A DNA stretch of 64,000 nucleotides from an uncultured Bacilli bacterium (GCA_947623685.1 CANQHF010000001.1:19619-83618), one strand, 5' to 3'. Positions 10,927 through 64,000 are shown, counted from the first letter of the stretch. The notes: generated by a model from the sequence alone, not told the origin. Made by a program: numbers and translations.

Positions 10927-12201
10927 TTATTTTACCGTTACACTTACTTTTGCACTTACGCCATCAGAAGCTGTTGCACTTATCGTTGCAACCCCAGGTT
11001 TAAGTGCTTTTACAACCCCATTTGAAACGCTAGCAACCGATGGATTAGAACTTTTCCAAGAAATATTTTTATTAGTTGCGTTAGTAGGAGAATAACTAAC
11101 TATTAATTTTTTTGATTCACCCTTTTTCAAAGCAAACGAATTAGGGGTTAATGTTATACTTACTAATTTAATATAATTAGATTTTACTACTACCGTTCTT
11201 GTTTTATAATTACTATTGCCGTATGAATCAGTAACAGAATAAGTTATTCGGTAAGTTCCAGCAACTTTGTTATTAACGCTTCCACTTCGGTTAACTAAAG
11301 CCGTTATATCCATTCCTTTGGCATCAAATGCTGAATATCCAGGATCAACCCAGGTTTGCCCTACGTTTATCGTTACGTAAGATTCTCCTTTTAAAATTAT
11401 GTTAGGAGGATCTGATACCTTTTTAGAAGTCGTTTTTTTCTTTGTTACGCTTTGTTTTGCAGTTGTCTGTTTAGCTTTAGTCGTTATTTCAACTTCTTTT
11501 TGAGTAGTCTTTTTAATAACCGTTACCACTCTTTTTTCTTGAGCTTTATTTCCTTTTTTATCACTAACCGTATAATAAATTGTATAAACACCTGCTTTAG
11601 ACACATCAACACTTCCAGTTATTTTTATACTTGAAGTTATATCCCCATCGATATTATCATGGGCTTTAGCGCCTTGTTCATCATATTTTTCGTTCACGTT
11701 AATTGTAATTTGCTTATCACCAATAATGGTTATCACTGGTTTTTCATCATCTTTTTCAGTCTTTTTTTTAGTGGTTACATCACTTATGTATCCCTTTGTT
11801 TCATAGCCATCACACGAAATATATGCATCATAAGTTTCAACTTGCACTTTAGATGCTAAAACGTATCCCTTACATATTTTTACAACCTTAAGTTTACTAG
11901 AATCTATCGCTCCGCCATTTTCCACCAATAATTCTTTTAAATCTATTTTAATTGGTTGATTAGTAAGTTCTATTTCTTTTTGAGATAAATAAGTAGGTGC
12001 TTCTTCTACCATACGAGATTCCAATCTTAAAAAATCTTGGGTAGTAAATTTTTCTTTTTGGTTTTTTGTTTTATTAAGTATAATGATAATTACAACTATT
12101 AAAATAATTAATCCTAACGCTAATAAAATAACCATACCTCTAGTTATTTGAAACTTTGGTTTTACTTCTTCGGTATTATAATCGTCCAATCGTATCACCA
12201 C
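10927..12201 (-). CDS. membrane-anchored surface protein with Ig-like (DUF5011/Big_2) domains
   Basis: N-terminal TM anchor, Lys/Thr-rich linker, and a C-terminal Big_2-like domain (ITLTPNSFALKKGESKKL...ATISATASDG). Confidence 0.55.
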   Translation of the reverse strand: MVIRLDDYNTEEVKPKFQITRGMVILLALGLIILIVVIIIILNKTKNQKEKFTTQDFLRLESRMVEEAPTYLSQKEIELTNQPIKIDLKELLVENGGAIDSSKLKVVKICKGYVLASKVQVETYDAYISCDGYETKGYISDVTTKKKTEKDDEKPVITIIGDKQITINVNEKYDEQGAKAHDNIDGDITSSIKITGSVDVSKAGVYTIYYTVSDKKGNKAQEKRVVTVIKKTTQKEVEITTKAKQTTAKQSVTKKKTTSKKVSDPPNIILKGESYVTINVGQTWVDPGYSAFDAKGMDITALVNRSGSVNNKVAGTYRITYSVTDSYGNSNYKTRTVVVKSNYIKLVSITLTPNSFALKKGESKKLIVSYSPTNATNKNISWKSSNPSVASVSNGVVKALKPGVATISATASDGVSAKVSVTVK

Positions 12202-15851: not shown

Positions 15852-16514
15852 CTATGAATCAGTTGTACTATACGTCAATGTTATATCTCCAAATGATACG
15901 TCGAAGTCGCCGTCTGCAAGTGGAGGATTATCAAGGTGACGTGCATAAGCCGTCCATACATAAATTTTTTCTGATGCTCCTTTTGCTAATGGATGATTAG
16001 TTACAGTTTTCGTGCTTCCTACACTATATAAAGGATTATTACTTGTTACATCATCACCTAAACTTATGGTTAATGCTATCTTTTTACAAACTTCATCTAC
16101 TAAAGTTTGTGATGTGCCTTGTTTTGCAGTACATGTTTTTTTACCAAACTCAATTTTCTTTAAATATGCTACGTAACTTCCTTCATTTCTTACGTAAAAT
16201 GTATATGAAGCAGAAGAATCTGGCTTTTTAAACGTTACTTTTATTCCAGTTATTTGTGGATGTAATGGATCAGTATTATTTATCGTTGCGGGTGTTGCAG
16301 TAGCATTAAGACTTCCTGGCGTAATAGTATTAGTTTGAAGGCTATCTTTTGAACTTGAAAACAAAACTTTAAAGTTTGATGGATCTGGGGTTACCGTTGC
16401 TCCTTGTTTTATTATTAGGTTATTAGAAAATACTGAAAATCCTATTGATAAGCTTACTACCACTGCAAGTAAACATAGTATTATTATAACTTTGTTATTA
16501 TTTCTCTTGTGCAT
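15852..16514 (-). CDS. Secreted protein, phase-variable paralog family (dispersed copy)
   Basis: 220 aa. N-terminus K-rich + hydrophobic + SIGFSVFSNNL...TVTPDPSNFKVLFSSS, and C-terminus DGDFDVSFGDITLTYSTTDS, both shared with 40722-43079. Preceded by the poly-G promoter module. Confidence 0.75.
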   Translation of the reverse strand: MHKRNNNKVIIILCLLAVVVSLSIGFSVFSNNLIIKQGATVTPDPSNFKVLFSSSKDSLQTNTITPGSLNATATPATINNTDPLHPQITGIKVTFKKPDSSASYTFYVRNEGSYVAYLKKIEFGKKTCTAKQGTSQTLVDEVCKKIALTISLGDDVTSNNPLYSVGSTKTVTNHPLAKGASEKIYVWTAYARHLDNPPLADGDFDVSFGDITLTYSTTDS

Positions 16515-16539: not shown

Positions 16540-16596
16540 TGTTTATAATATCATATACCCCCCCCCGGTCAAGTTTTTGAAACAATTGTGGAAAAC
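16540..16596 (-). promoter_or_regulatory. Family promoter module with G9 tract in the -35/-10 spacer
   Basis: Minus strand reads GTTTTCCACAATTGTTTCAAAAAC-TTGACC-G9-TATATGA-TATTATAAAC; C tract at 16558-16566. Confidence 0.6.
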
Positions 16597-21033: not shown

Positions 21034-22683
21034 TTAATCTATTTTATAAGGATTATTAATAGATCCATCTCCATATGTATAAGTTACATCATTTTTTAAT
21101 GATACACTTGGGTTAACACTAGCAGTTTCTTTTAGACGTTTAGAGTCAAATTTACCATTATTAATAACATATCTATAGAACTCATTATTGATATTTTCTT
21201 CAGCAAGTTTCATAGTAAATAACCACATTGGATTACCAGACGTATAAGGTAAATACGATGATGTTGGAGACAAATTAGCACTTATTCCTGCAAGCATCGC
21301 CTCATCTGATGTTAATAATGCTACCGGGTAAGTAATTTTTAGTGTTACTAAATCTGAATTCCACTCGCCGGCAAGACTATACATGGTAATAGGAGCAGTG
21401 CCATATCCTAAATATGGTTTACCATTACTAATCCTAGTATCAGCAGATTGTGAATCAGGATCATAAATAAATTCATTCCATATGGTATCTTCTAATTTAA
21501 GAGTGTATTTTGTCATATTTTGTGAATACCAATTATCTATATAGTTATGTATATCCAAAAAAGGTGTGGAAAAACCATTAAGCATTTCACCACCATAAAA
21601 ATTAGCATCCTCATCTTTATCATATTCAGTATTTCCAATACTTGATATGGCCGAGCATACTCCATTTACTGGTTTCCCACTATAAACTATTTTTATTCCG
21701 CCAGTATCAGTTGTTCTTACTATCTTCCAGCAAAAGTTTGCAAATAATACATTATTATTTAACGTGTTATCTCCCCTATAATAATATATTGGATATTTAT
21801 CACTACTTGTTGATGAAAATTTGTACTTTCCTTGTCCATTAGTACTAGATGATGGTTTTGTAAAATCTATTTTACTATCAGATGTTGCACCATCTTTTAT
21901 GGTAGCATAAAGACTTTTAGGTTTTAATCCCTCAATTACCAAATCACCAGTTACATTTTGGATGGTAAATTGACCATTTTGATATGTATATTGACTACTT
22001 GTTAATGCTTTACCACCTTGCGTTATATTAAATACCGTATAACCAGTACCTATATCTATATTTAATGTATCTTCATCTAATATCTCTGTTGGTAAATTTG
22101 TGAAGGATGCTGATGTTATATTTTTATAAGTTATCTTATGATATGTTCTAAAATCAAATCCTAGATTAAAAGTATAATCTTTTGTCGCTGTAGCAGCATT
22201 ATATTTACCATCTTTATATTTTATTACTATGTCAATTGTTCTTTTAGCGCCCATAGTACATTTTATAGTGCTTAAATTATCACATATTTTAGATTTTTCT
22301 GGAAAAATTGTTGCATATGTTAAATCAGCTGGTAAGACTTCTGCTATATATTTAAAAATGCCAACTTCTACATTTCCTATATTAGTTATTTCTACCTTAT
22401 ATGTTACGGTTGAGTTTGCATTTGGAAGTCTTACGCTTCCGCTTATGTTAGATACGTTATAATCTTCCCAGTTTGATATACCACCATTATTACCTTGTGC
22501 AGTAACATTTGTTACCCTAACATCTTTTTCTACTCTTACTACCGCTTTAATATCTTTCACGTTTAGTTTAGTATTAAATGCTGAATAACCCACGGATATT
22601 AGTAAAGTCATTATTACCATTACGCTTGCTATTATACTTGGCACTTGCAATCTTTTTTGTTTTTTCAACAGAATCATCTCCAC
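21034..22683 (-). CDS. Large secreted protein sharing the family signal peptide and promoter module
   Basis: 549 aa with N-terminus ...LLISVGYSAFNTKLNVK (TasA/SipW-cognate-like) and a Thr/Asn/Gly-rich beta-type ectodomain. The ORF track starts at GTG 22683; in-frame ATG 22677 or TTG 22668 may be the real start. Poly-G promoter module upstream. Confidence 0.7.
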   Translation of the reverse strand: MEMILLKKQKRLQVPSIIASVMVIMTLLISVGYSAFNTKLNVKDIKAVVRVEKDVRVTNVTAQGNNGGISNWEDYNVSNISGSVRLPNANSTVTYKVEITNIGNVEVGIFKYIAEVLPADLTYATIFPEKSKICDNLSTIKCTMGAKRTIDIVIKYKDGKYNAATATKDYTFNLGFDFRTYHKITYKNITSASFTNLPTEILDEDTLNIDIGTGYTVFNITQGGKALTSSQYTYQNGQFTIQNVTGDLVIEGLKPKSLYATIKDGATSDSKIDFTKPSSSTNGQGKYKFSSTSSDKYPIYYYRGDNTLNNNVLFANFCWKIVRTTDTGGIKIVYSGKPVNGVCSAISSIGNTEYDKDEDANFYGGEMLNGFSTPFLDIHNYIDNWYSQNMTKYTLKLEDTIWNEFIYDPDSQSADTRISNGKPYLGYGTAPITMYSLAGEWNSDLVTLKITYPVALLTSDEAMLAGISANLSPTSSYLPYTSGNPMWLFTMKLAEENINNEFYRYVINNGKFDSKRLKETASVNPSVSLKNDVTYTYGDGSINNPYKID

Positions 22684-22699
22684 AATTTTTCAATTTCCT

Positions 22700-22760
22700 A
22701 TGTTAATAATATCACTAACCCCCCCCCGGTCAAGTTTTTTAAAAAATTGTGGAAAACAAA
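22700..22760 (-). promoter_or_regulatory. Family promoter module with G9 tract (C tract 22719-22727)
   Basis: Minus strand reads ...TTGACC-G9-TTAGTGA-TATTATTAAC; the upstream block is slightly diverged (TTTTTTAAAAAA). Confidence 0.55.
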
Positions 22761-23080: not shown

Positions 23081-23260
23081 AAAAAAATTAAAAAAATATG
23101 CTTTTTTTCTCATTGTTTTAATTTATTATTTATGAATCAGTTGTACTATACGTTAAAGTTATATCGCCAAACATAACATCATCTTTCTTTTATTTACTAT
23201 GTTTATAATATCCCCATACCGGTAGTTTTTTGAAAAATTGTAGAAAACAAAAAACCATAT
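23081..23260 (-). pseudogene. Deletion remnant of a family gene (3' end fused to 5' UTR + degenerate promoter module)
   Basis: 23131-23172 equals the last ~41 nt of the family ORF (..ITLTYSTTDS*), joined directly at a 7-nt microhomology (GATGTTA) to family 5'UTR sequence. The promoter module is degenerate (CCCCATACC; GGTAG for GGTCAAG). The family 3' flank is conserved at 23081-23130. Confidence 0.6.
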
Positions 23261-27597: not shown

Positions 27598-28164
27598 TTA
27601 ATCAGTTATTATTTCTACTATACTGCCATTTTCAATTAAAAAAGCATTTGCATCATCAGTATCCAAATGAACTTCAGACACATAGTTATCTTTTATTCTT
27701 ACGTACACATCATTTAGTATTCCACTTTTTTTGCCTTTTACTAATACGGAAACAAACTTTTTGTCTTTAAGTCCTAATTCTAAAGCTTCTTTAGTTGATA
27801 CGTGTAAATGTCTTGCAGCAATAATTGCAGCGTTTTTAGTTATTTTTGATTTTGGCCCAATTATCGTTATTTTTGCAGCGCCAGTTAAATCTCCAGAACA
27901 TCTTACCGGGGGATTAATTCCTAATTTATAAGCATCCGTTTTTGAAATTTCAACTTGGGTTTTATCTCTTAAAGGCCCTACAATTCTTGCTTTTAGAGTT
28001 TCTTTATTTGGACCTTCTAAAACAACTAAAGAAGTAGATGCATACTCACCCTTTTGTGATAAATCATTTTTTTTAGTTAACTTATAATCATCTCCAAACA
28101 AAGTTTTTAAATCTTCATAATTAAGATGAACGTGTCTTGCACTAACACCAACTTTTACTTTCAT
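27598..28164 (-). CDS. pduL: Phosphate propanoyltransferase PduL-like
   Basis: 188 aa with duplicated GVSARHVHL... / ARHLHVS PduL repeats. Confidence 0.6.
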   Translation of the reverse strand: MKVKVGVSARHVHLNYEDLKTLFGDDYKLTKKNDLSQKGEYASTSLVVLEGPNKETLKARIVGPLRDKTQVEISKTDAYKLGINPPVRCSGDLTGAAKITIIGPKSKITKNAAIIAARHLHVSTKEALELGLKDKKFVSVLVKGKKSGILNDVYVRIKDNYVSEVHLDTDDANAFLIENGSIVEIITD

Positions 28165-28251
28165 AGCTTATCTCCTACTTTTAATTATAACATGTATAAA
28201 TATTTTTATTCAATCATATATTTAAATGAATTATAAAAAAGGAGATTATAT

Positions 28252-28668
28252 ATGAACACAAATTATTATTCAAATCCTACTTATCCAAACTTAAATACAA
28301 GTGGAATTCAAATGAGTGCAATGGGGGGTGTTGCATCAAGTCCTAGCCAGTCAACTAGTAACGCAAGTAATAATAACCTAGCCGTTATGCAGGCGACTAA
28401 TAATATGCTTGAAATAGAACAGTCATACATTGAAAACATATTAAGACTTAATAAGGGAAAACTAGCAACTTTTTATATGTCTTTTCCAGATTCAGTAGAT
28501 TGGAGAGATAAAACATTTACCGGAATAATAGAAGCAGCCGGAAGAGATCACATAATCATAAGTGATCCTAAAACCGGAAGATGGTACTTACTTCTTATGA
28601 TTTATTTAGACTACGTCGATTTTGATGAGAAGATAAATTATAGTCCAGAGTATTATCCAAATAACTAA
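28252..28668 (+). CDS. gerQ: Spore coat protein GerQ-like
   Basis: 138 aa with a Ser/Asn/Gln-rich N-terminus and a conserved C-terminal block EQSYIENILRLNKGK...TGIIEAAGRDHIIISD, resembling GerQ/YwdL. Confidence 0.45.
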   Translation: MNTNYYSNPTYPNLNTSGIQMSAMGGVASSPSQSTSNASNNNLAVMQATNNMLEIEQSYIENILRLNKGKLATFYMSFPDSVDWRDKTFTGIIEAAGRDHIIISDPKTGRWYLLLMIYLDYVDFDEKINYSPEYYPNN

Positions 28669-28729
28669 CTAAATCTTGTAAATATTATCTACTTTTGTTA
28701 TAATTTAAATTAGAATAGAGGTAGATAAA

Positions 28730-29263
28730 ATGATCATCATATTAATTATTTTAGTACTTGCCATAATATTATTTATTTATAGTATTTGCCATGATAAAAT
28801 TAGCTTTTTAACAATAAAATTATCTAACATAGAAGAAAAAATAAAAAGTACGTTAATTAAAAGAAAAGAATTAATTAAGGATTCTGAAAAAATAATAAAA
28901 GACATAGTAAAAACAGAAAAAGAAATATATAGTGGTTTATCTAATTTAAATGATGAAAAAATTAACATGATGGAATTAGATAGAAAACTATTAGTATATA
29001 TAAGTGAATTTCATCTTATAAAAGATAAATATCAAAAATTACAAAAAAACGAAGATTTTCAAAAGATTGCTTTTAATATTTTAGAAACAGAAGACTTACT
29101 TAATGCTTATAAAAATTATTATAATGATAACGCTCTTAAATATAATAAACTTATTAAAAAGTTTCCAATTATTATCGTCACTCTAATAAAAAGAAGAAAA
29201 GAAAAACTATTCTTTGATGAAAAAAATATAAATGATTTAGATTATAATGATTTTAAATATTAA
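28730..29263 (+). CDS. lemA: LemA family protein
   Basis: 177 aa with an N-terminal TM helix, then a LemA-like domain (NAYKNYYNDNALKYNKLIKKFPIIIVT). Confidence 0.6.
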   Translation: MIIILIILVLAIILFIYSICHDKISFLTIKLSNIEEKIKSTLIKRKELIKDSEKIIKDIVKTEKEIYSGLSNLNDEKINMMELDRKLLVYISEFHLIKDKYQKLQKNEDFQKIAFNILETEDLLNAYKNYYNDNALKYNKLIKKFPIIIVTLIKRRKEKLFFDEKNINDLDYNDFKY

Positions 29264-29269
29264 AGGAGA

Positions 29270-29929
29270 TTAAAAACTAATCTCCTTTTTATTATGTTCT
29301 TTTAAATATTTATTTGTTTTAGAAAATGGCTTACTTCCAAAGAAACCATTATAAGCTGATAAAGGTGAAGGATGTGCTGACTCTATTATGTAATGACTAG
29401 GATTAGTTATAATTCTTTTCTTATCTCTCGCTTGCCTTCCCCATAAAATAAAGACAACGTTATCTAATTTATCATTTATTTGTTTTATTACATAATCAGT
29501 AAATATTTCCCATCCAATATCCTTATGTGAATTAGCCTTATCTTTTTCTACGGTTAATACTGTGTTAAGTAAAAACACTCCTTGTTTAGCCCAGTCTGAT
29601 AAATCAGTATCAGTTCTTTTTATTTTTAAGTCATCATATAACTCTTTAAATATGTTATTTAAAGAAGGTGGTGTTCTAACTCCCCTTCTTACTGAAAACG
29701 AAAGCCCCATCGCTTCTTTTTCGCCATGATAAGGGTCTTGTCCTAAAATAACTACTTTAATATCATTAAAATCAGTTAATTTAAACGCATTAAATAAATC
29801 TTGAGCAGGTGGATATATTGTTTTGGAAAGTCTTTCTTCTTTAATAAAATCTTTAATATATTTAAAATAACTCTTTTGCATTTCATCTTGCAATATCAAA
29901 TCCCAATTATTATGAAACAAGGTTAGCAC
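29270..29929 (-). CDS. ung: uracil-DNA glycosylase
   Basis: 219 aa with the family-1 UDG motifs GQDPYHG and HPSPLSA. Confidence 0.9.
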   Translation of the reverse strand: MLTLFHNNWDLILQDEMQKSYFKYIKDFIKEERLSKTIYPPAQDLFNAFKLTDFNDIKVVILGQDPYHGEKEAMGLSFSVRRGVRTPPSLNNIFKELYDDLKIKRTDTDLSDWAKQGVFLLNTVLTVEKDKANSHKDIGWEIFTDYVIKQINDKLDNVVFILWGRQARDKKRIITNPSHYIIESAHPSPLSAYNGFFGSKPFSKTNKYLKEHNKKEISF

Positions 29930-30157
29930 CTCCTAATAAGTTAATTCTAACTTCCTTTGGTTTTATTATAGCAAATGTATTAAAAATAATAAACAAAAAA
30001 GCTATTTAAAGCTAAACTCCTTGAAATAGTGCAATATCGCTTTCTTTTTTGTAAAACCCCTATTATTTTATATAGCATTTAGATTTTTCTAAAATAAAAG
30101 ATTGATTTGACAAAATATAATCTATAGATATAATAATGCAAAAAGGAGTTTAAAACT

Positions 30158-30898
30158 ATGGATACTATAAATCAAAAAGAAATATTAGATAAAATAAAGC
30201 AGGAAATATGTAGAATTCATCCTATCTTAAGTCCTAGAAAAAATGATGAAAGAAAAGAAATTTCTGTAATGGAAATATATTTTAATTTCGGAGCAACATA
30301 TGATAATACACCCTTTACTTTTATTGGTTTTTTAGATGGAGATGAACACCATAAAAGTACAACCTCCACTTATTATAAATTAGATGAATATATTAATTTA
30401 GAAATGGTTGATCAACTTATTTCTTATTTAATTAGCCAATACCCATATATAAGCGATTTTTCCATTTTTCCACAGTTTTTTTCTTTAAATTTTGCGTATC
30501 CTTGTGAAATGGAAAATCAAGAAGGAATCAGTTGTGATAAAATTATATTAAATTTTACTACACGTACTAAAGAATTTACACCAATATTAAATCAATATTT
30601 ATCAAATATTTTAGTACAATTTACAAATGAATTATCGCGAACTTCAACTTTTCAATATAAATATGCTGAATACTGTAATAATTTGCAAAGAAATATTTTA
30701 AATTCATTAAATGAAAAAGAAATAGAGCAAATGATTGAAATATTACCAATTGAAATGAAAAAAGAATTATTGCAAAAACTTCCAAGTCAATATTTTTTGC
30801 AATTTTATCAAGAACATTATAATAAGGAAGAAGAAGCACTATCAAAACAATTAATTAATAATAAGACACAGCCACCTTTTAAACTACCAAAATCTTAA
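30158..30898 (+). CDS. hypothetical protein
   Basis: 246-aa ORF with good RBS (AAAGGAG); no recognisable family. Confidence 0.4.
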   Translation: MDTINQKEILDKIKQEICRIHPILSPRKNDERKEISVMEIYFNFGATYDNTPFTFIGFLDGDEHHKSTTSTYYKLDEYINLEMVDQLISYLISQYPYISDFSIFPQFFSLNFAYPCEMENQEGISCDKIILNFTTRTKEFTPILNQYLSNILVQFTNELSRTSTFQYKYAEYCNNLQRNILNSLNEKEIEQMIEILPIEMKKELLQKLPSQYFLQFYQEHYNKEEEALSKQLINNKTQPPFKLPKS

Positions 30899-30967
30899 AA
30901 GATATAAAACAAAGTAAAAAATACTTAAATAAAACTAGAAGCAAGTAAAATAATAACAGCTTTTTAA

Positions 30968-30998
30968 GGAACGCAAATAGCGTTTCTTTTTTCTTTGT
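30968..30998 (+). terminator. Candidate rho-independent terminator
   Basis: GGAACGCaaatAGCGTTTC hairpin followed by TTTTTTCTTT. Confidence 0.4.
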
Positions 30999-31171
30999 TA
31001 ATAAATAATTATAAAAGTTATTCACCTAAAAACAAGCACCATAATTATAAAAATTATAGGTGTGTAATTTTTCATAATAAATATTATTTAGAGTTTTACT
31101 TTACTTACATTTTTTTATTAGCTATAAATAATAAAATGAATAATGCTCAAAATATACCATATTATAATAAT

Positions 31172-31224
31172 ATACCGATGACGGTATAAAATATATTGAC
31201 AGATACTACCGATGTCGGTATAAT
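31172..31224 (+). promoter_or_regulatory. fic promoter with two palindromic operator-like sites
   Basis: -35 TTGACA (31196-31201), 17-nt spacer, -10 TATAAT (31219-31224). Palindromes ATACCGATGACGGTAT (31172-31187) and TACCGATGTCGGTA (31207-31220) lie upstream of and inside the spacer. Confidence 0.5.
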
Positions 31225-31242
31225 GTAAATAGAGGTGTAATT

Positions 31243-32169
31243 ATGGAATTTATGACTACAAAAGAAGCTGTAAAAAAATGGAATATTAGTGAAAGAAGAA
31301 TAAGACAATTATTACAAGACGGAAGAATTGATGGTGCAATTAAAGTAGATAATAATTGGAATATTCCTATTAATGCTAATAAACCTGCCGATAAAAGAAG
31401 TATTAAATTTGATAATACTAAATTTAAATTTGAATTACCTGATAATTATTTTGATGAAGTCGATAAATTAAATAAGAAATTAAGTTCTAAAAGACCTATA
31501 CCAAAAGAAACACTAAAATCTTTAAAAGAATCTATTAATTTAGAATGGACTTATAATAGCAATGGCATAGAAGGAAATACGTTAACTTTAAGAGAAACAC
31601 AAGTTGTTTTAGAAGGTATTACAGTTGGTGGTAAATCTTTAAAAGAACATTTAGAAGCTATTAATCATGAACAAGCAATATTATTTTTGGATGATCTTAT
31701 TAAAGATAAAAAGCCAATTACTGAATCCAATATTAAAAATATTCATCAATTAGTATTAAAAGAAATTGATGATAAGAATGCTGGTAAATATAGAGATGAG
31801 AATGTAAAAATAAAAGGTGCCACACATATTCCACCAGATTATTTAATTGTTCCAGAATTAATGAAAAAATTAATTATTAACTATGATGATTGGAAAAAAT
31901 ACCATCCAATAATAAGAGCTTCCTTATTACACGGAGAATTAGTTAAAATTCATCCATTTGTTGATGGTAACGGAAGAACTTCAAGATTAGTTATGAATCT
32001 ATCTTTAATGAATAGTGGATATCTTCCAGTAATCATAAAAAAAGAAAAAAGATTAGAATACTATAATGCATTAGATAAGGCACATACTACTGGAGATTAT
32101 ACTGATTTTGTCAAATTAGTTAATGAATTAGAAATTGAAATGTTAAATAAATATTTAGAATTATTATAA
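31243..32169 (+). CDS. fic: Fic family protein with N-terminal HTH
   Basis: Fic motif HPFVDGNGRTSR; N-terminal excisionase/MerR-like HTH (TTKEAVKKWNISERRIRQLLQDGRI). Confidence 0.8.
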   Translation: MEFMTTKEAVKKWNISERRIRQLLQDGRIDGAIKVDNNWNIPINANKPADKRSIKFDNTKFKFELPDNYFDEVDKLNKKLSSKRPIPKETLKSLKESINLEWTYNSNGIEGNTLTLRETQVVLEGITVGGKSLKEHLEAINHEQAILFLDDLIKDKKPITESNIKNIHQLVLKEIDDKNAGKYRDENVKIKGATHIPPDYLIVPELMKKLIINYDDWKKYHPIIRASLLHGELVKIHPFVDGNGRTSRLVMNLSLMNSGYLPVIIKKEKRLEYYNALDKAHTTGDYTDFVKLVNELEIEMLNKYLELL

Positions 32170-32190
32170 AAAAATAACAAACAAAAAGAG

Positions 32191-32637
32191 CTATTTATGA
32201 TAGCTTTCATTATTTATTATTTTAAATGAACGATATATTTGTTCTAATAAAATTATCCTAAACAATTGATGTGGAAAAGTTAAATCAGAAAATGATATAG
32301 AGCAATTTGCTCTTTTTATAACTTCTTCTGATAATCCGTATGAACCACCTATTACGAAAGTAATATTATTAGAAATATTATGGTTAATAAAACTTGATAA
32401 CTCTCTTGAATCTAGCTTTTTACCATTTATTTGTAAAGCAACAACATAATCTTTATCTAAAATTTTAGAAAGAATATTTTTACCTTCTTCGTTAATTGTC
32501 TTTACTAAATCATAATTATAATCTGGTAGTTCTATTATTTCTAATTTAGTGTACTTGGATATTCTTTTTTCATATTCTTTTATTGCTTCCATAAAGTACT
32601 TTTCTTTAACTTTTCCAACACATATTATTTTTATCAT
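32191..32637 (-). CDS. rlmH: 23S rRNA (pseudouridine1915-N3)-methyltransferase RlmH
   Basis: SPOUT fold; MIKIICVGKVKEKY... matches RlmH, with the start placed at that Met rather than the upstream ORF-track start. Confidence 0.8.
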   Translation of the reverse strand: MIKIICVGKVKEKYFMEAIKEYEKRISKYTKLEIIELPDYNYDLVKTINEEGKNILSKILDKDYVVALQINGKKLDSRELSSFINHNISNNITFVIGGSYGLSEEVIKRANCSISFSDLTFPHQLFRIILLEQIYRSFKIINNESYHK

Positions 32638-39241: not shown

Positions 39242-39631
39242 TTATTTCATTGTTTTTTTATTATCATTTAAATCAATTTGGTTTAAAATTTCAATATTAT
39301 AATTTAATCCGCGTTTTTCTTCGCCACTAACATATACCGCATCAAGCTCTTCTAAACTAAAACTTTTTTGTCTATCTTCCTTTTGTGTGTTTATATTTTT
39401 AAATAACTTACCAAGTGGTACGTCTATTTTTGAATTATTTTTTTCATCTTTAAAAATAAGTCTTGAGTCATTAAATATATAATTACTTTTTCCTATTTGC
39501 TTTCGTGATATAATTTGATAATAATCAAATATGCCAACAAGCATGTCAAAATCACTTGCACCACCATAAAACAAAAGTAATTTTATATTATTATTTGTAA
39601 ATAAATCTTCTATTTGCCTAGTTGTTATCAT
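39242..39631 (-). CDS. hypothetical protein
   Basis: 129-aa ORF, no family recognised. Confidence 0.35.
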   Translation of the reverse strand: MITTRQIEDLFTNNNIKLLLFYGGASDFDMLVGIFDYYQIISRKQIGKSNYIFNDSRLIFKDEKNNSKIDVPLGKLFKNINTQKEDRQKSFSLEELDAVYVSGEEKRGLNYNIEILNQIDLNDNKKTMK

Positions 39632-39684
39632 TTCACCACATCCGAAATATATATTATATCAAATGATAAAAACAATCAAGAAAA

Positions 39685-40587
39685 TTAAGATGCTTTTTTC
39701 TTTTCCCAAGGAGCTTTTTTTCTTAATTGTGATCCATTATAACCTATTTCATCTTCTTGTTTATTAGAACTTATACCATCGTAATTTATAACATCTTCAT
39801 TTATTTTTAAGTTTCTTAGTTGATATTCTTGATCTTGGTTTTTTACTACCGCACTTATTTCATCTTTTGTTGGATCATTTGGCACGCATAGAATAACTAT
39901 ATTCTCATCTGGTGCAACAAAAACGTTTTTAGATAACCTTAATATTACTTGATCAACCGGTGTTTGCATTAATCTTTTTTTATCTTCTTCACTTTTTGCA
40001 AGCATATTTATAATTGATGATATAAGACCATAAACGCATTGTTTTTCTTTGTAAGAAAGTTTTGAAAATTCACCTCTTTTTGCTAAATCAGTAACGTTTT
40101 TAACCTTTATTTCAATTCTTTGTTTTTCGATTGAATTTTCATATACATCAACTGAATTTACGAATCCATTAACACTAACTAACCCATTTTCATCCTTTGC
40201 GGCTTCAAATAATTCTTTAGCTGTTTTACCAGAATGATTTTCAACTATTTTAATCTCATCGGTTGGATATGGATAATGTATTTTAATATATCTTTTAGTT
40301 TTTGACTCATTTTCAAATTCATCAACGTTATCTAAAGTTATTTTATTTTCTTGTGGTAATTTTTCATTATTTAAATTCAATTTATTTTCAATTTCTTCTT
40401 TAGTAAGCCTTTTAATTTCTTCAAAAATTTCTTTAACGTTTCTTTTATCATTTAAATATATATCACATAATTTTTGTTTATCAACATCAGAAACATTTTT
40501 ATTAAGGCAAACTTCATCTACAGCTAAAGCAATTGACTTTTTCTTAAATTCATTAGTATCATTTGTAACATTTATATTATTTTCCAT
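39685..40587 (-). CDS. hypothetical acidic protein
   Basis: 300 aa, hydrophilic, no signal peptide, no family recognised; immediately downstream (in transcription direction) of the tandem family array. Confidence 0.4.
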   Translation of the reverse strand: MENNINVTNDTNEFKKKSIALAVDEVCLNKNVSDVDKQKLCDIYLNDKRNVKEIFEEIKRLTKEEIENKLNLNNEKLPQENKITLDNVDEFENESKTKRYIKIHYPYPTDEIKIVENHSGKTAKELFEAAKDENGLVSVNGFVNSVDVYENSIEKQRIEIKVKNVTDLAKRGEFSKLSYKEKQCVYGLISSIINMLAKSEEDKKRLMQTPVDQVILRLSKNVFVAPDENIVILCVPNDPTKDEISAVVKNQDQEYQLRNLKINEDVINYDGISSNKQEDEIGYNGSQLRKKAPWEKKKAS

Positions 40588-40669
40588 TTATAACCACCTT
40601 CTATTATAATTATATATATTTACCATTTCTATTCAATTTTTATATACTATATATGTAAATTAAAAAGTA

Positions 40670-40705
40670 AAAAAAGATTAACATTTAAATTTTGTTAATC
40701 TTTTA
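40670..40705 (-). terminator. Rho-independent terminator ending the tandem family array
   Basis: Perfect 11-bp inverted repeat AAAGATTAACA...TGTTAATCTTT followed by TTTTTTT on the minus strand. Confidence 0.55.
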
Positions 40706-40721
40706 TCTTATATCTATATTA

Positions 40722-41417
40722 TTATGAATCAGTTGTACTATACGTTAATGTTATATCGCCAAACGTAACATCAAAGTCTCCGTCAGCGAATACATTATTA
40801 TTATTATTTTTATAAAAAATAGAAATAATAATATATTTAAAAGTTTCTTTTTCTAAAGGATGTTCTGTTATATTATCTCGTGTAGTTTTTAAACCTTCTA
40901 TATTCCACGCACTAAGGGAAACGTCATTACCATCATAATGTATTTCAATTATTATACCTTCACAGACTTTATCTACTAAATCTTGTGATGTACCTTCTTT
41001 GGCAATACATTTTTTATCTCCAAATTCTATTTTCTTTAAATATGCTGTATACTTTCCTTGGTTTGTAACATAAAACCCCCAATTAACAAGATCATCTGGA
41101 TTTGTAAGCGTTGCTTTTAATCCAGTTATTTTTGGATGCAATGAATCACTATTATCTATTGTTGCAGGAAATCCCAATGCAGTACCTTTAATAACACGAT
41201 AATTAAGATCTCCAGCTACCACACTATCTTTTGAACTTGAAAACAAAATCTTAAAGTCTGATGGATCTGGTGTTACTGTTGCAGTTGAATTAATATCTAG
41301 ATTTTTAGAAAATGCTGAAAATCCTATTGATAAGCCTATTACTCCAATCATAAGTACCATGATTATTATTATTTTAGAGTTTTTATTATATCTTTTTCTT
41401 GTTCTTTTACTATTCAT
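40722..41417 (-). CDS. Secreted protein, phase-variable paralog family (array member 3)
   Basis: 231 aa with N-terminus MNSKRTRKRYNKNSKIIIIMVLMIGVIGLSIGFSAFSKNLDINSTATVTPDPSDFKILFSSS, conserved central KYTAYLKKIEFGDKKCIAKEGTSQDLVDKVCEGI, and C-terminus DGDFDVTFGDITLTYSTTDS. Confidence 0.8.
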   Translation of the reverse strand: MNSKRTRKRYNKNSKIIIIMVLMIGVIGLSIGFSAFSKNLDINSTATVTPDPSDFKILFSSSKDSVVAGDLNYRVIKGTALGFPATIDNSDSLHPKITGLKATLTNPDDLVNWGFYVTNQGKYTAYLKKIEFGDKKCIAKEGTSQDLVDKVCEGIIIEIHYDGNDVSLSAWNIEGLKTTRDNITEHPLEKETFKYIIISIFYKNNNNNVFADGDFDVTFGDITLTYSTTDS

Positions 41418-41439
41418 TTTTTCCCACCTTGTTTCAATT

Positions 41440-41500
41440 TACTATGTTTATAATATCACTTACCCCCCCCCGGTCAAGTTTTTGAAACAATTGTGGAAAA
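41440..41500 (-). promoter_or_regulatory. Family promoter module with G9 tract (C tract 41463-41471)
   Basis: Minus strand reads GTTTTCCACAATTGTTTCAAAAAC-TTGACC-G9-TAAGTGA-TATTATAAAC...AAGGTGGGAAAAAATG. Confidence 0.6.
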
Positions 41501-41600
41501 CAAATTATAGATTTGTAAAATAATTTAACTTAGTAATTGCAAAATAAATTATTCAAAAAATATGCTTTCTTTTGCATATTCCATTGTTTTAATTTATTAT

Positions 41601-42269
41601 TTACGAATCAGTTGTACTATATGTCAAAGTCAAATCACCAAACTCTACATCAAAGTCGCCGTCTGCAAGTGTCGCTTTAGAAGAGTAGTCAATCTGAATA
41701 GCAACATGTTTAAAAGTCCCTTTTTCTAAAGGATGATCTGTTATATTATCTTTTGTAGTAGTTAAACCAAGTATATTCCAACTACCAGCGTCATCATCAT
41801 AATATATTCGAAGTTCTATACCTTCACAAGCTTTATTAACTAGGTCTTGTGATGTTCCGTCTTTTGCAGTACATTTTTTCTCTCCAAACTCTATTTTCTT
41901 TAAATATGCTGTGTATTTCCCTTGGTTTGTAACATAAAACCACCATTCAGCAGCTTTACCTGAACCAGTAAACGTTGCTTTTAAATTACTAATAGTCGGG
42001 TGTGCCGGATCACTATTATTTATTGTTGCAGCTGTTCCTTGCACATATAATGGGTTAATAGGATTAGTTTCAACTGTCGTGTTTGAACTTGAAAATAATA
42101 CCTTAAAGTCTGATGGATCTGGTGTTACTGTTGCAGTTGAATTAATATCTAGATTTTTAGAAAATGCTGCAAAACCAATTGATAAGCCTATTACTCCAAT
42201 AGTAAGTACAATGATTATTATTATTTTAGAGTTTTTATTATATCTTTTTCTTGTTCTTTTACTATTCAT
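41601..42269 (-). CDS. Secreted protein, phase-variable paralog family (array member 2)
   Basis: 222 aa with the same N-terminal 60 aa and C-terminal DGDFDVEFGDLTLTYSTTDS; the central region is divergent. Confidence 0.8.
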   Translation of the reverse strand: MNSKRTRKRYNKNSKIIIIIVLTIGVIGLSIGFAAFSKNLDINSTATVTPDPSDFKVLFSSSNTTVETNPINPLYVQGTAATINNSDPAHPTISNLKATFTGSGKAAEWWFYVTNQGKYTAYLKKIEFGEKKCTAKDGTSQDLVNKACEGIELRIYYDDDAGSWNILGLTTTKDNITDHPLEKGTFKHVAIQIDYSSKATLADGDFDVEFGDLTLTYSTTDS

Positions 42270-42284
42270 TTTTCCACCTTGTTT

Positions 42285-42350
42285 TAATTCCTATGTTTAT
42301 AATATCACTAACCCCCCCGGTCAAGTTTTTTCAAAAATGGGTGGAAAACA
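42285..42350 (-). promoter_or_regulatory. Family promoter module with G7 tract (C tract 42312-42318) and diverged upstream block
   Basis: Minus strand reads ...CACCCATTTTTGAAAAAAC-TTGACC-G7-TTAGTGA-TATTATAAAC. Spacer is 2 nt shorter than in the other copies. Confidence 0.6.
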
Positions 42351-42401
42351 AATTGAAAAAAATATGTTTTTTTTGTATGTTTTATTACTTTAATTTATTA
42401 T

Positions 42402-43079
42402 TTACGAATCAGTTGTACTATACGTTAAGGTTATATCTCCAAACTCTACATCAAAGTCTCCATCTGTAACAGGAGCATTAGCATTATAAATACCAATAGC
42501 AATCCGTTTAAAAGTGCCTTTTTCTAAAGGATGATTTGTTATATTTTCTTTTGTAGTAGTTAAATTAGGTATATCCCAACTACCAGTGCTACGATCATAA
42601 TATATTTGAAGGTTCATATATTCACAAGCTTTATCAACTAAAGCTTGTGATGTTCCTTCTTTGGCAATGCATTTTTTAGTTCCAAAATCTATTTTCTTTA
42701 AATATGCTGTATATTTTCCTTGATTGGTTACAAAAAATTCCCATTCAACCATTTGGTTTGATTTAGTAAACGTTGCCTTTATGCCTGTTATTTTTGGATG
42801 CAATGGATCTTTATTATCTATTGTTGCAGTAGTTCCTGTCGCATTAGCACTTTTAAGACTAACACCAATAGGATTAGTTGCAACAGTTGTTTCTGAACTT
42901 GAAAACAAAATTTTAAAGTCTGATGGATCTGGTGTTACTGTTGCAGTAGAATTAATATCTAAATTTTTAGAAAATGCTGAAAATCCTATTGATAATCCTA
43001 TTACTCCAAATGTAAGTACCATGATTATTATTATTTTAGTGTTTTTATTATATCTTTTTCTTGTTCTTTTACTGTTCAT
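42402..43079 (-). CDS. Secreted protein, phase-variable paralog family (array member 1)
   Basis: 225 aa with the same N-terminal signal region and C-terminus DGDFDVEFGDITLTYSTTDS. Confidence 0.8.
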   Translation of the reverse strand: MNSKRTRKRYNKNTKIIIIMVLTFGVIGLSIGFSAFSKNLDINSTATVTPDPSDFKILFSSSETTVATNPIGVSLKSANATGTTATIDNKDPLHPKITGIKATFTKSNQMVEWEFFVTNQGKYTAYLKKIDFGTKKCIAKEGTSQALVDKACEYMNLQIYYDRSTGSWDIPNLTTTKENITNHPLEKGTFKRIAIGIYNANAPVTDGDFDVEFGDITLTYSTTDS

Positions 43080-43104
43080 TTTTTTCCACCTTGTTTTAAT
43101 TTCC

Positions 43105-43170
43105 TATGTTTATAATATCACTAACCCCCCCCCGGTCAAGTTTTTGAAACAATTGTGGAAAACAAATTAA
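43105..43170 (-). promoter_or_regulatory. Family promoter module with G9 tract (C tract 43125-43133)
   Basis: Minus strand reads GTTTTCCACAATTGTTTCAAAAAC-TTGACC-G9-TTAGTGA-TATTATAAAC. Confidence 0.6.
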
Positions 43171-43202
43171 AAAGATTAACGTTTTAATTTTACGTTAACC
43201 TT

Positions 43203-62875: not shown

Positions 62876-64000
62876 TTAATCATTATTAGTTTGAATATCA
62901 AAATCGTAGGTCTGATGAACATCATTTGAGAAAATATCACCTATAAAATCATTCGTAGATGTTTTAAGTGCAAAATACAAATCTTCTCTTACTTGTGAAC
63001 TATTTGGATAATTTCGTGCTTCTGAAACATATCGAGTACACCAATAATTATTTTTTAGGCATTTGTCTTCTCCTCCAGCACCTTGGAAAAGACTATCGAC
63101 TTTTTCTTGCATCACTGTCGCATCTTTAACTAAAGCATCGTAAAACTTTTGAGCGTATTCATCAATATTGATGTATTTAAGATGTTCAAGTTTTTCTTTT
63201 GTTAAAGCAAAACGATTCTTTTTATATGCGTCCATCGAATCATATCCGGTAATCTTTTTAAGTGCCATCGAATCAGACTTAAAGTTGTTGACTCCGTTTT
63301 TAGTAATATTATCTTTATTACTTGCGTACTCAATAAATCCTTCGTCATAACCAGCATAGCCTAACATTTCGTAAGATATCCACTTTAATGAATAAGAATC
63401 AGGTCTACCATTTGGGTTCCAAGGTTGATACCAGTGAATATTAGCAATACCTTCACCACCATATAAATTGTCTCCACGAGAACCAACTTCATATAGTCCA
63501 GGTACCATCGTTATTCGATTTTCAATCAAATCATCAATATCATTTAATTTCATTGCTGACCATTCTTCTGCAGTTAATTGTTTATATTGTGTTACCAAAC
63601 GAGCTAGATAAAATTCTGTTGTATCTTTATATTTTTCTTCATCTGGATAATTTGCTTGGAAACCTAAGACTGCTTTTTGTTCATTTGTTAATTTCATGAA
63701 AGCTTGAGCTTCGATATAATCCATTACATAAAGCGTTTCAAATACTTTACTATAGAAATCTTTAATTTCTTTTTTACTATTAATTCTTTCAGGAGTCATG
63801 TTCGAAGCCACACGTTGATCACTATTATATTTTACCGTTAAATTCATAACGATATCGCGAGGTCCAAATTGTTGCATTAAGAATCCTTCGCAATAGTCTT
63901 CTCCACCAGAGTTAAATCTTCGACCATAATTTTCTAAGAACAATCTTGCATCAAAGTAATGGGCAGTTTCATGTGACCAAGTCATGAAGGTTGGATGTCC
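62876..64000 (-). CDS. HExxH zinc metallopeptidase-like protein (N-terminus beyond window)
   Basis: HETAH motif near the visible N-terminus with downstream Glu residues; the reading frame is open to the window edge, so the protein is longer than the 369 aa shown. Confidence 0.5.
   Translation of the reverse strand, partial: GHPTFMTWSHETAHYFDARLFLENYGRRFNSGGEDYCEGFLMQQFGPRDIVMNLTVKYNSDQRVASNMTPERINSKKEIKDFYSKVFETLYVMDYIEAQAFMKLTNEQKAVLGFQANYPDEEKYKDTTEFYLARLVTQYKQLTAEEWSAMKLNDIDDLIENRITMVPGLYEVGSRGDNLYGGEGIANIHWYQPWNPNGRPDSYSLKWISYEMLGYAGYDEGFIEYASNKDNITKNGVNNFKSDSMALKKITGYDSMDAYKKNRFALTKEKLEHLKYINIDEYAQKFYDALVKDATVMQEKVDSLFQGAGGEDKCLKNNYWCTRYVSEARNYPNSSQVREDLYFALKTSTNDFIGDIFSNDVHQTYDFDIQTNND

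Follow-up and report, generated by a model that had tools for sequence, protein, structure and literature searches.

We propose, with slightly better than even confidence, that a group of paralogous genes in an uncultured Bacilli bacterium encodes individually phase-variable subunits of a TasA-like fibre. The group lies in the 64-kb window (the whole stretch of 64,000 nucleotides that was analysed) and comprises three tandem genes (A, B and C), a fourth paralog (D) and a gene for a larger relative of 549 aa; each is a complete unit that has a promoter, a Shine-Dalgarno sequence, an ATG and a stop codon to itself. A homopolymer of at least 7 nt was found between the -35 and -10 hexamers at all five promoters, and the bacterium can probably express or silence each fibre variant separately. 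Cleavage, polymerisation and switching of the subunits are what we infer from the sequences, a predicted structure, the operons of relatives and the differences between strains.

The tandem array and its divergence

Genes A (42402..43079, 225 aa), B (41601..42269, 222 aa) and C (40722..41417, 231 aa) lie head to tail on the minus strand, and open reading frames and alignment place them at exactly the coordinates originally predicted. The product of gene A has a basic n-region, a hydrophobic helix, a GFSAF motif, a conserved N-terminal extension and a beta-sandwich. In pairwise protein alignment (222-231 aa) the three are 69-75% identical. The N-terminal stretch of ~60 residues, described as near-identical in the original prediction, is 92-95% identical over residues 1-62, and the common internal block and C-terminus described with it are 84-89% (residues 117-153) and 90-95% (DGDFDV.FGD(I/L)TLTYSTTDS) identical, respectively. 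The stretches between these blocks had been said to differ completely, but few gaps are needed to align the two variable segments, whose identity is 40-60%, and "hypervariable" is therefore an overstatement. At the DNA level the repeat units are 70-91% identical, which rules out an origin of the array by chance. The pN/pS ratio is 0.15 in the conserved blocks as against 0.9-1.3 in the variable ones, where it is not significantly greater than 1, and dS is 0.12-0.29 over codons 1-62 as against 0.5-1.1 in the C-terminal block.

A copy of the promoter module stands before each gene and the flanks are repeated, both as predicted. A terminator-like hairpin with a T-run follows gene B (41549..41582, minus strand; -12.6 kcal/mol, z -3.3), and a repeat search identified the hairpin with a T-run after gene C (40665..40704, minus strand) as a copy of the one that follows the upstream AbgT gene (43167-43202). 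Hairpin and terminator analysis found no convincing terminator downstream of gene A, so that transcription may run on into gene B even when promoter B is off. Scanning the window against Rfam and for tRNAs gave no match and thus no leader RNA element. An origin of the array from a prophage or mobile element was considered and rejected, as its neighbours are housekeeping genes and the window has no integrase or phage families.

Further members of the family

Gene D (15852..16514, minus strand) encodes a fourth paralog of 220 aa that is ~54% identical to A-C; an exact look-up of its product returned no match. The 549-aa protein (21034..22683, minus strand) carries a signal of the family type (..LLISVGYSAFNTKLNV..), a family-related N-terminal module and a C-terminal DUF6273-like payload domain (~256-549), and its gene has the same promoter and signal as A-D. 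Several small subunit paralogs (A-D) and a larger subunit with a common N-terminal signal and module are hence found together in the window. The 549-aa protein is homologous to the large protein encoded by the fourth operon gene of relatives (E 1e-37 to 1e-42), and its C-terminal domain has 38-41% identity to domains found elsewhere behind N-termini of the camelysin/TasA (PF12389) or type IV pilin (PF07963) type. A deletion remnant of a D-like paralog (~23133..23260, minus strand) retains a variant promoter (CTACCGGTATGGGGATATTAT), a D-type leader and an ATG joined in frame with the final 13 codons (MFGDITLTYSTTDS and stop); the same variant promoter also precedes an intact paralog in L021. 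Gene D, its 549-aa relative, the remnant and the promoter poly-G tracts had all gone unmentioned in the original prediction.

The family is large (3,743 clusters at 50% identity) and was rightly described as unrecognised, A, B and C having no meaningful Pfam, NCBIfam, PHROG or PDB sequence match. Candidate matches to SecE, the PRK15306 fimbrial protein and Laminin_G_3 were discarded, being far below cutoffs and mostly over the signal helix. That the proteins are not standard pilins is borne out. TasA/camelysin and TIGR04088 HMMs had been suggested as probes; neither PF12389 (Peptidase_M73, TasA/camelysin), run against A, B and C, nor TIGR04088 (SipW-dependent-type signal peptide) gave a match at E<=1, and a family profile searched against PDB sequences did not find TasA. 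A neighbour protein in L010 matches TIGR04088 (23.6 bits vs a cutoff of 19), hhalign of the family against a TIGR04088-positive neighbour protein aligned the signal region alone with 7% probability, and the family motif GF[AS]AF resembles the GT[FW]A[AY]F of TIGR04088.

Predicted structure, processing and operon context

The AF2 model of the gene A product (pLDDT 87.6) consists of a TM helix (12-36), a low-confidence segment (37-56) and a beta-sandwich (57-221). The segment before the beta-sandwich is the most conserved in the family, yet it has a low pLDDT in the model. TasA is cleaved at A|AF, with Phe at P2', at a site that needs SipW (PMC10269814), and its donor strand is the N-terminal segment straight after cleavage (PMC9674648, PMC10269814). 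The AF of the TasA cleavage site recurs in the family motif GF(A/S)AF.

Related loci provide the operon context. In seven distinct ones, the L022-L024 MAG included, the subunit gene is followed by genes for a 375-aa membrane protein, a DUF5305 protein and the large protein. The 375-aa protein is encoded directly downstream of the subunit gene in L007-L012, L017/L018 and L022-L024; its L008 copy has an archaeal-type signal peptidase I domain (TIGR02228, 85.5 bits vs a cutoff of 51.85) and the other copies are homologous, while DUF5305 (PF17231) is matched in L008, L012, L017, L018 and L022-L024. In the literature, loci for TasA-like donor-strand fibres are made up in this way, of signal peptidase I, DUF5305 and major and minor subunits (PMC11821415; bioRxiv 10.64898/2026.01.04.697558; PMC9674648). 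The position of the relatives' subunit gene, directly upstream of an archaeal-type signal peptidase I and DUF5305, also agrees with the earlier description of the signal as SipW-cognate-like. Signal peptidase and DUF5305 genes are absent from the 64-kb window itself, and the link to the peptidase and to DUF5305 is one at the family level, drawn from relatives.

A different reading of the same features is that these are surface proteins that do not polymerise, either held by an uncleaved N-terminal signal anchor or plainly secreted, with a beta-sandwich that binds glycans or host ligands and with paralogs that differ in ligand specificity rather than in antigenicity. The long N-terminal helix of the AF2 prediction, which could be an uncleaved membrane anchor, is consistent with this, as are the weak Pfam Laminin_G_3 match of gene B and the BspA-type LRR adhesin domains at the C-terminus of longer family members. 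We consider it unlikely, because the operon is conserved and includes a dedicated peptidase of the SipW type and DUF5305, which indicates specific processing, and because the payload domain of the large subunit is common to TasA-type and pilin-type N-modules. Moreover, the segment after the predicted cleavage site, being both the most conserved and unstructured in the monomer model, is not what would be expected of a mere stalk.

On the preferred reading, that the five genes encode subunits of a TasA-like surface or matrix fibre, the precursors would be exported by Sec and cleaved at GF(A/S)|AF, probably by a signal peptidase I of the SipW type (archaeal/ER-type) that is dedicated to them and works with DUF5305 as accessory protein. 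The conserved segment AFSKNLDINSTATVTPDPSDFKILFSS at the new N-terminus would then serve as a donor strand, completing the sandwich of the subunit next in line, and the 549-aa protein would be the large subunit bearing the payload domain. The proposed interface parts (N-terminal extension, core and C-terminal strands) are kept by purifying selection, the 5' end apparently also by gene conversion, and the two remaining segments have diverged between paralogs.

Poly-G tracts in the promoters

Each of the five genes is preceded by a putative sigma-A-type promoter with a poly-G tract in its spacer, all on the minus strand. Promoter A (43112..43139) consists of TTGACC (43134-43139), G9 (43125-43133), TTAGTGA and TATTAT (43112-43117), with a TG extended -10 and a spacer of 16 nt, and promoter C (41450..41477), likewise with a 16-nt spacer, of TTGACC, G9 (41463-41471), TAAGTGA and TATTAT. 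The promoters of gene D (16545..16572; G9 at 16558-16566, then TATATGA) and of the 549-aa gene (22706..22733; G9 at 22719-22727, then TTAGTGA) have the same TTGACC and TATTAT hexamers. Promoter B (42299..42324) is built of TTGACC, G7 (42312-42318), TTAGTGA and TATTAT; with a spacer of only 14 nt it is predicted to be weak or off, and it was not called by a promoter scanner that needs a spacer of 16-18 nt.

All five G/C runs of at least 7 nt in the 64-kb window (G9, G7, G9, G9 and G9) lie inside a family promoter, between TTGACC and TGnTATTAT, and the same is true of such runs in 124 kb of close-relative loci (17/17 inside the same promoter module). The poly-G tract is kept in other species while its flanks diverge, and the promoter module with G8-G10 was found in other gut metagenomes. 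"Locked" versions with a non-repetitive 17-nt spacer also occur (L003, L020). Slipped-strand mispairing would alter the spacer, from 17 nt with G10 to 16 with G9 and 14 with G7, so that the expression of each paralog could be raised, lowered or shut off in a reversible way, independently of the others. The population would then be expected to be mixed in the fibre variants that it displays, which may serve as an antigenic and/or adhesive bet-hedge in the gut.

Differences between near-identical strains

When the window was compared over 38.5 kb with the same species, all 18 differing positions (~7 events) were found to fall in family genes or promoters (P ~3e-8), though assembly chimeras could account for part of the differences inside repeated genes. 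The promoter of gene D has G9 in the window and G10 in L016, a contig from another assembly with 99.96% identity over 17.8 kb; this is a single case of a tract-length difference at one locus, taken from assemblies and not from reads, and since these are Illumina metagenome assemblies at ~8x coverage, homopolymer error or consensus noise is possible in it. Gene D also differs from L016 in an (AAT)n repeat in the signal n-region, (AAT)2/3, and in three substitutions. The A-run that separates the Shine-Dalgarno sequence (GGTGG) of gene A from its ATG (43080..43086, minus strand) is A7 in the window and A5 in the same-species contig L001. Judged from the sequences, the A5/A7 and (AAT)2/3 differences are two further slippage events. 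Three other loci with G8 vs G9 (L043, L045 and L051) were rejected as orthologs, since they have the promoter and ~230 bp of the 5' end in common and then diverge, and were left out of the same-locus tract polymorphism.

The tract may instead be a fixed promoter element, that is, a spacer of defined length or a regulator site, with the paralogs co-expressed as major and minor subunits and with length differences that are sequencing or assembly noise. A precedent for co-expression is found in Candidatus Faecisoma merdavium, where three tandem subunit paralogs in a peptidase/DUF5305 operon with a single promoter are co-transcribed (intergenic gaps ~20 bp). The predominance of G9 in assemblies from many samples and species, and the single occurrence of a same-locus length difference, would also fit a fixed element. 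We nevertheless regard this explanation as improbable: a fixed spacer needs no homopolymer, the non-repetitive 17-nt versions evidently work, and lengths of 7, 8, 9 and 10 all occur. In addition, there is no easy other explanation for the retention of G8-G10 runs at this position only in genomes with a GC content of 23-30%, and other strain differences in the family genes are slippage events too.

Recombination between paralogs also appears to have left a trace. The L001 allele of gene B differs from that of the window at six positions in codons 20-34 and agrees with gene C at all six; over a 41-bp tract (42170-42210), which lies inside the conserved signal region, L001's gene B is identical to gene C, and this looks like gene conversion between paralogs, although it may be an assembly chimera. 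In the original prediction the array was taken for a set of antigenic-variation cassettes that vary mainly by gene conversion or unequal crossover, as in silent-cassette systems. The variable copy number (1, 2, 3 or at least 9 in related genomes) and the conversion-like tract bear out part of this proposal, and the low dS at the 5' ends, the deletion remnant and the metagenome loci that diverge after a common promoter and 5' end would fit as well. The remainder did not stand: all copies are complete transcription units rather than silent or truncated donors, there is no single expression site, and the conversion-like tract lies outside the variable segments, in the conserved signal region. Recombinase genes were not found near the array, which has weak inverted repeats only and no inversion sites. 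The hallmarks of pilE/pilS, vlsE and M. pulmonis Vsa, namely promoterless or truncated donors and recombinase inversion, are thus not seen here, and we hold variation mainly by cassettes to be quite improbable. Slippage of poly-G in the promoter spacers is the more likely mechanism of variation. The array is not identical in copy number and sequence across related genomes, and the proteins were assigned to no housekeeping family.

Relationship to known fibre and phase-variation systems

The proposed phase-variable fibre shares several traits with the products of Bacillus subtilis tapA-sipW-tasA, viz., a secreted beta-sandwich subunit of ~200 aa (here AF2-predicted), a signal peptide that ends in ..A-A-F.. 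with an aromatic residue at P2', a linked dedicated archaeal-type signal peptidase I (here at the family level) and a larger accessory subunit with common N-terminal features. Unlike TasA, the family has no PF12389 or TIGR04088 match; unlike SipW, the peptidase of the relatives has a polytopic membrane domain fused to its N-terminus and DUF5305 as its partner; and the subunit genes of the window, unlike those of B. subtilis, are dispersed, multiplied and individually promoted. TasA-superfamily fibre loci with signal peptidase I and DUF5305, archaeal and bacterial (tafi TafA-G; AbpX-like), differ in sequence family, in signal (Tat-type as against Sec-type here) and in source (extremophile archaea as against host-associated low-GC Bacilli here), whereas poly-G promoters and tandem arrays are features of the loci studied here.

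The Vlp genes of Mycoplasma hyorhinis, as treated by Yogev et al. 1991 in EMBO J, reportedly form a cluster of paralogs for surface proteins whose bodies diverge, while their 5' regions and signal peptides are highly conserved. Each promoter is said to carry poly-A between -35 and -10, giving combinatorial ON/OFF expression, and the products are said to be lipoproteins whose repetitive C-terminal regions also vary in size. The genes of the window likewise form a paralog cluster with conserved 5' regions, each with its own promoter and a homopolymer spacer, but their products are predicted to be beta-sandwiches that carry a SipW-type signal and are not lipoproteins, and the homopolymer is poly-G and not poly-A. 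The original analogy to Vlp/Vsa accordingly holds for Vlp, which poly-G promoter slippage would resemble, and fails for Vsa.

A counterpart in fibre biology is found in Bordetella fim2, fim3 and fimX, which are paralogous major fibre-subunit genes with a C/G homopolymer inside each promoter; tract length sets transcription and allows serotype switching, and interrupted "locked" tracts are known in relatives (PMC1891110). Paralogous fibre-subunit genes, homopolymer promoters and "locked" versions recur here, with a presumed effect of tract length. The Bordetella genes differ in encoding Gram-negative chaperone-usher fimbriae and in having C7-C19 between the site of an activator (BvgA) and the -10, as against G7-G10 between a TTGACC -35 and an extended -10 in front of TasA-like subunits.

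TasA-like donor-strand fibres have so far been known as biofilm matrix scaffolds under ordinary transcriptional control, and no report of phase or antigenic variation was found in the literature for TasA or TasA-like donor-strand fibres. If the present reading is true, abundant uncultured gut bacteria would display such fibres as a variable surface and would follow the population-level strategy of the Bordetella fimbriae or the Mycoplasma Vlp proteins. A large unannotated family would gain a testable function, and the few positions that differ between near-identical strains would be explained. The cleavage site, the donor strand and the tract-length-dependent expression that it predicts can be tested without culturing. 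A wider proposal, to which we give rather less than even credence, is that an uncultured low-GC gut Bacilli lineage (gut metagenomes of human, rabbit and other origin) relies on a single portable "contingency promoter", with G8-G10 as the -35/-10 spacer, to phase-vary independently a whole repertoire of SipW-processed donor-strand fibre subunits and payload-bearing large subunits. Antigenically variable fimbriae would thereby have a TasA-type counterpart in Gram-positive bacteria, and strain-level microevolution in these genomes would take place mainly at these loci.

The Gram-positive anaerobe Clostridium perfringens has a SipW-dependent polymerising matrix protein, BsaA (TIGR04090), and type IV pilus genes are implicated in its secretion (PMC11580942). 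The family has no TIGR04090 match and no evidence of isopeptide bonds, and the window has no type IV pilus genes. A resemblance to BsaA lies in the type IV pilus-type genes that adjoin the subunit genes in Ca. Faecisoma (T2SSF and a prepilin peptidase) and in L012 (a type IV pilin-like gene).

Tandem paralogs with conserved ends and variable segments

The three head-to-tail ORFs of the original prediction are present on the minus strand at exactly the claimed coordinates (gene A, 42402-43079, 225 aa; gene B, 41601-42269, 222 aa; gene C, 40722-41417, 231 aa) and share an overall pairwise identity of 69-75%. Identity among the three is 92-95% in the N-terminus (residues 1-62), 84-89% in the core (residues 117-153) and 90-95% in the C-terminus (residues 206-225), as against 40-54% in the first variable segment (residues 63-116) and 50-60% in the second (residues 154-205). 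These segment identities (84-95% versus 40-60%) bear out the predicted alternation of conserved blocks and variable segments, but the latter can still be aligned and hence, contrary to that prediction, do not differ completely. The promoter and the 3' flank both lie within the repeat unit, in agreement with their predicted repetition with each gene. A terminator-like hairpin 3' of gene C (40665-40704) is a copy of the hairpin 3' of the upstream AbgT transporter gene (43167-43202), and the array is therefore bracketed by a direct repeat. No convincing terminator was found for gene A, so gene B may be transcribed by read-through. Directly downstream of the array are two orphan ORFs of 300 aa and 129 aa (39242-40587, minus strand), which have neither a signal peptide nor a family match; at the syntenic AbgT-ychF locus, a related species (L004) lacks both.

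Searches of the window with tblastn identified a fourth paralog, gene D (15852-16514; 220 aa, ~54% identical to A-C), and a 549-aa protein (21034-22683) that shares the promoter and the type of signal (..LLISVGYSAFNTKLNV..). A D-like paralog remnant (~23133-23260, minus strand) retains a variant promoter (CTACCGGTATGGGGATATTAT), a D-type leader and an ATG that continues in frame into the final 13 codons (MFGDITLTYSTTDS*); this variant promoter, with a G6 tract, is also present ahead of an intact paralog in L021.

Sequence searches and predicted structure

No significant sequence match to A, B or C was obtained in Pfam, NCBIfam, PHROG or the PDB. Membership in the TasA/camelysin family, to whose signal the original prediction had likened that of these proteins, was not borne out, as none of the three proteins matches PF12389 (camelysin/TasA) or TIGR04088, and by sequence the array lies outside the TasA family in these HMM tests. 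The family is large all the same, with 3,743 clusters in a profile search (50% identity, E<=1e-3), among which C-terminal extensions are common, including BspA-type LRRs in some. Family-wide conservation is highest over residues 31-60 and 211-225, and two cysteines (C137 and C152) are conserved. A confident AlphaFold2 model built from 64 sequences (pLDDT 87.6) has a hydrophobic helix (residues 12-36), which could be an uncleaved anchor, a low-confidence extended segment (residues 37-56) and a β-sandwich (residues 57-221), the last being generic as evidence of fold for the family.

Operon context and probable relationship to TasA-like fibres

Three conserved genes come after the subunit gene in L007-L012, six loci that are more distant, and in one further MAG (L022-L024). 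The first encodes a ~375-aa membrane protein with an archaeal-type signal peptidase I as its C-terminal part (TIGR02228, 85.5 bits against a cutoff of 51.85 in L008, where the SipW model scores 65.8 bits, under its equivalog cutoff), the second a DUF5305 protein, and the third a larger protein (450-715 aa) with homology, over its first ~250 residues, to the 549-aa protein of the window (E 1e-37 to 1e-42). Candidatus Faecisoma merdavium, a more distant relative, has three tandem 215-aa family paralogs (65-83% identical, with ~20-bp gaps) followed by the same peptidase, DUF5305 and large-protein genes. This operon immediately follows T2SSF and prepilin-peptidase genes (L017/L018), and a type IV pilin-like gene is present upstream in L012. 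These neighbours recall the SipW-dependent protein BsaA of C. perfringens, whose secretion is reported to be type IV pilus-associated (PMC11580942). No signal peptidase, sortase or pilus machinery is present within the 64-kb window.

A signal peptidase I with a DUF5305 accessory protein and major, minor and tip subunits is described in the literature as the characteristic locus of TasA-like donor-strand fibres, both for tafi (PMC11821415) and for AbpX-like loci (bioRxiv 10.64898/2026.01.04.697558). The donor strand of TasA comprises residues 28-38, straight after SipW cleavage (PMC9674648), and the Phe at P2' of its cleavage site A|AF is the reason SipW is necessary (PMC10269814); the family motif GF(A/S)AF shares the AF of this site. 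In other bacteria, domains that share 38-41% identity (E 1e-45 to 1e-47) with the C-terminal domain of the 549-aa protein (~256-549) come after N-termini of either PF12389 (camelysin/TasA) or type IV pilins, and thus one payload occurs on three kinds of filament-subunit module. Based on the operon context in relatives and, independently, on this payload sharing, we conclude that the family probably encodes SipW-type-processed fibre subunits, for which we infer cleavage and polymerisation. By the family-level locus architecture seen in relatives, the array would fit the TasA-superfamily fibre kind.

The poly-G promoter module

Each copy is preceded, on the gene strand, by the module GTTTTCCAC...AAAAAC TTGACC (G)n TTAGTGA TATTAT AAACATAG, with its TG at the extended -10 position. 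The tract is G9 with a spacer of 16 at genes A, C and D and the 549-aa gene, and G7 with a spacer of 14 at gene B. Apart from these five tracts, the whole window contains no G/C run >=7, and in 124 kb of close-relative loci, 17 of 17 such runs fall within the module. The G9 module is also present in other species (L004, L005, L014, L015, L019, L020), while a non-repetitive 17-nt spacer replaces the G tract in L003 and in one L020 gene, suggesting a functional optimum of 17 nt. Scanning metagenomes for the pattern recovered the module with G8, G9, G10 or interrupted G5AG4 tracts on gut contigs of 23-30% GC, human-gut assemblies included (L025-L057), and four loci of one sample carry G8, G9, G10 and G9. 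It lies there upstream of family members, 549-like proteins, a protein with a TasA-type signal (L029), secreted proteins (L044, L052) and an operon with a type IV pilin-like gene (L036). Three contigs (L043, L045, L051) are 95-96% identical over the promoter and ~230 bp of 5' coding sequence and then diverge, and are thus mosaic paralogs. By their anatomy, the array promoters fit the simple-sequence contingency-locus kind.

Differences between strains and copies

Over two same-species contigs from another assembly, L001 (20.7 kb; 99.95% identity to the window) and L016 (17.8 kb; 99.96%), all differing positions (18/18) are in family genes or promoters, although mis-assembly is possible in repeated genes. 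The differences amount to ~seven events, confined to 8.4% of the sequence compared (P ~3e-8). The gene D promoter has G9 in the window versus G10 in L016, the only same-locus tract-length difference, and the tract-length evidence as a whole is drawn from low-coverage Illumina metagenome assemblies. The n-region of the gene D signal peptide has (AAT)2 versus (AAT)3 at 16503, and the signal also differs by three clustered substitutions. In gene A, the A-run between SD and ATG (43080-43086) has 7 A in the window versus 5 A, and there is one synonymous change relative to L001. Gene B differs from L001 by eight substitutions, six of which form a 41-bp tract (42170-42210); over this tract gene B of L001 matches gene C exactly, a gene-conversion-like pattern.

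Codon analysis of A, B and C is consistent with this, giving a dS of 0.12-0.29 for codons 1-62 and of 0.5-1.1 for the C-terminal block, which indicates homogenisation of the 5' end and purifying selection alone at the opposite end. The pN/pS is 0.15 in conserved blocks and 0.9-1.3, not significantly >1, in variable blocks. Copy number varies by genome, with one copy at the syntenic AbgT-ychF site of L004, two in L005 and at least nine in L020, which are 35-76% identical to each other and mostly have their own poly-G promoter.

Proposed mechanism and known systems

Slipped-strand mispairing in the poly-G spacer would alter the -35/-10 spacing, and transcription of each paralog would therefore be expected to change independently; the predicted optimum is G10, with an intermediate or on state at G9 and an off state at G7. 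Conservation of the N-terminal extension, core and C-terminal strands would allow all paralogs to work with one peptidase and one assembly interface. The remaining segments vary between paralogs, and a population of varying fibre composition would be expected. The same promoter-slippage logic operates in Mycoplasma hyorhinis vlp and meningococcal porA. Tract length is likewise coupled to transcription in Bordetella fim2/fim3/fimX (PMC1891110). The antigenic-variation cassettes of the original prediction are not supported in their silent form. The array falls outside silent-cassette and inversion systems, since all of its copies are complete transcription units and it has no accompanying recombinase. 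We found no literature report of TasA-like fibres combined with phase variation; the analysis is purely in silico and the organisms are uncultured.

Genomic surroundings

Housekeeping genes from around the replication origin (whiA, parAB, dnaB, rpsF-ssb-rpsR, ychF) make up the window (GC 25-35%), together with spo0A and gerQ. The related loci belong to rabbit, goat and mouse gut MAGs with the title "uncultured Bacilli bacterium". A 424-aa membrane-anchored surface protein (10927-12201, minus strand) with Bact_surface_Ig-like and Big_2 domains lacks a poly-G promoter, and its signal anchor is of the ordinary kind. At the window edge, a truncated ORF (62876-63985, minus strand) matches Peptidase_M26_C (E 7.6e-20), the C-terminal region of IgA1-specific metallo-endopeptidases, a hint that this bacterium copes with host IgA. 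A short plus-strand block (28000-32200; GerQ, LemA, an unknown 246-aa ORF and Fic/DOC with HTH) coincides with a local sign change of GC skew and the lowest GC of the window (0.24-0.25), and may be an inserted segment.
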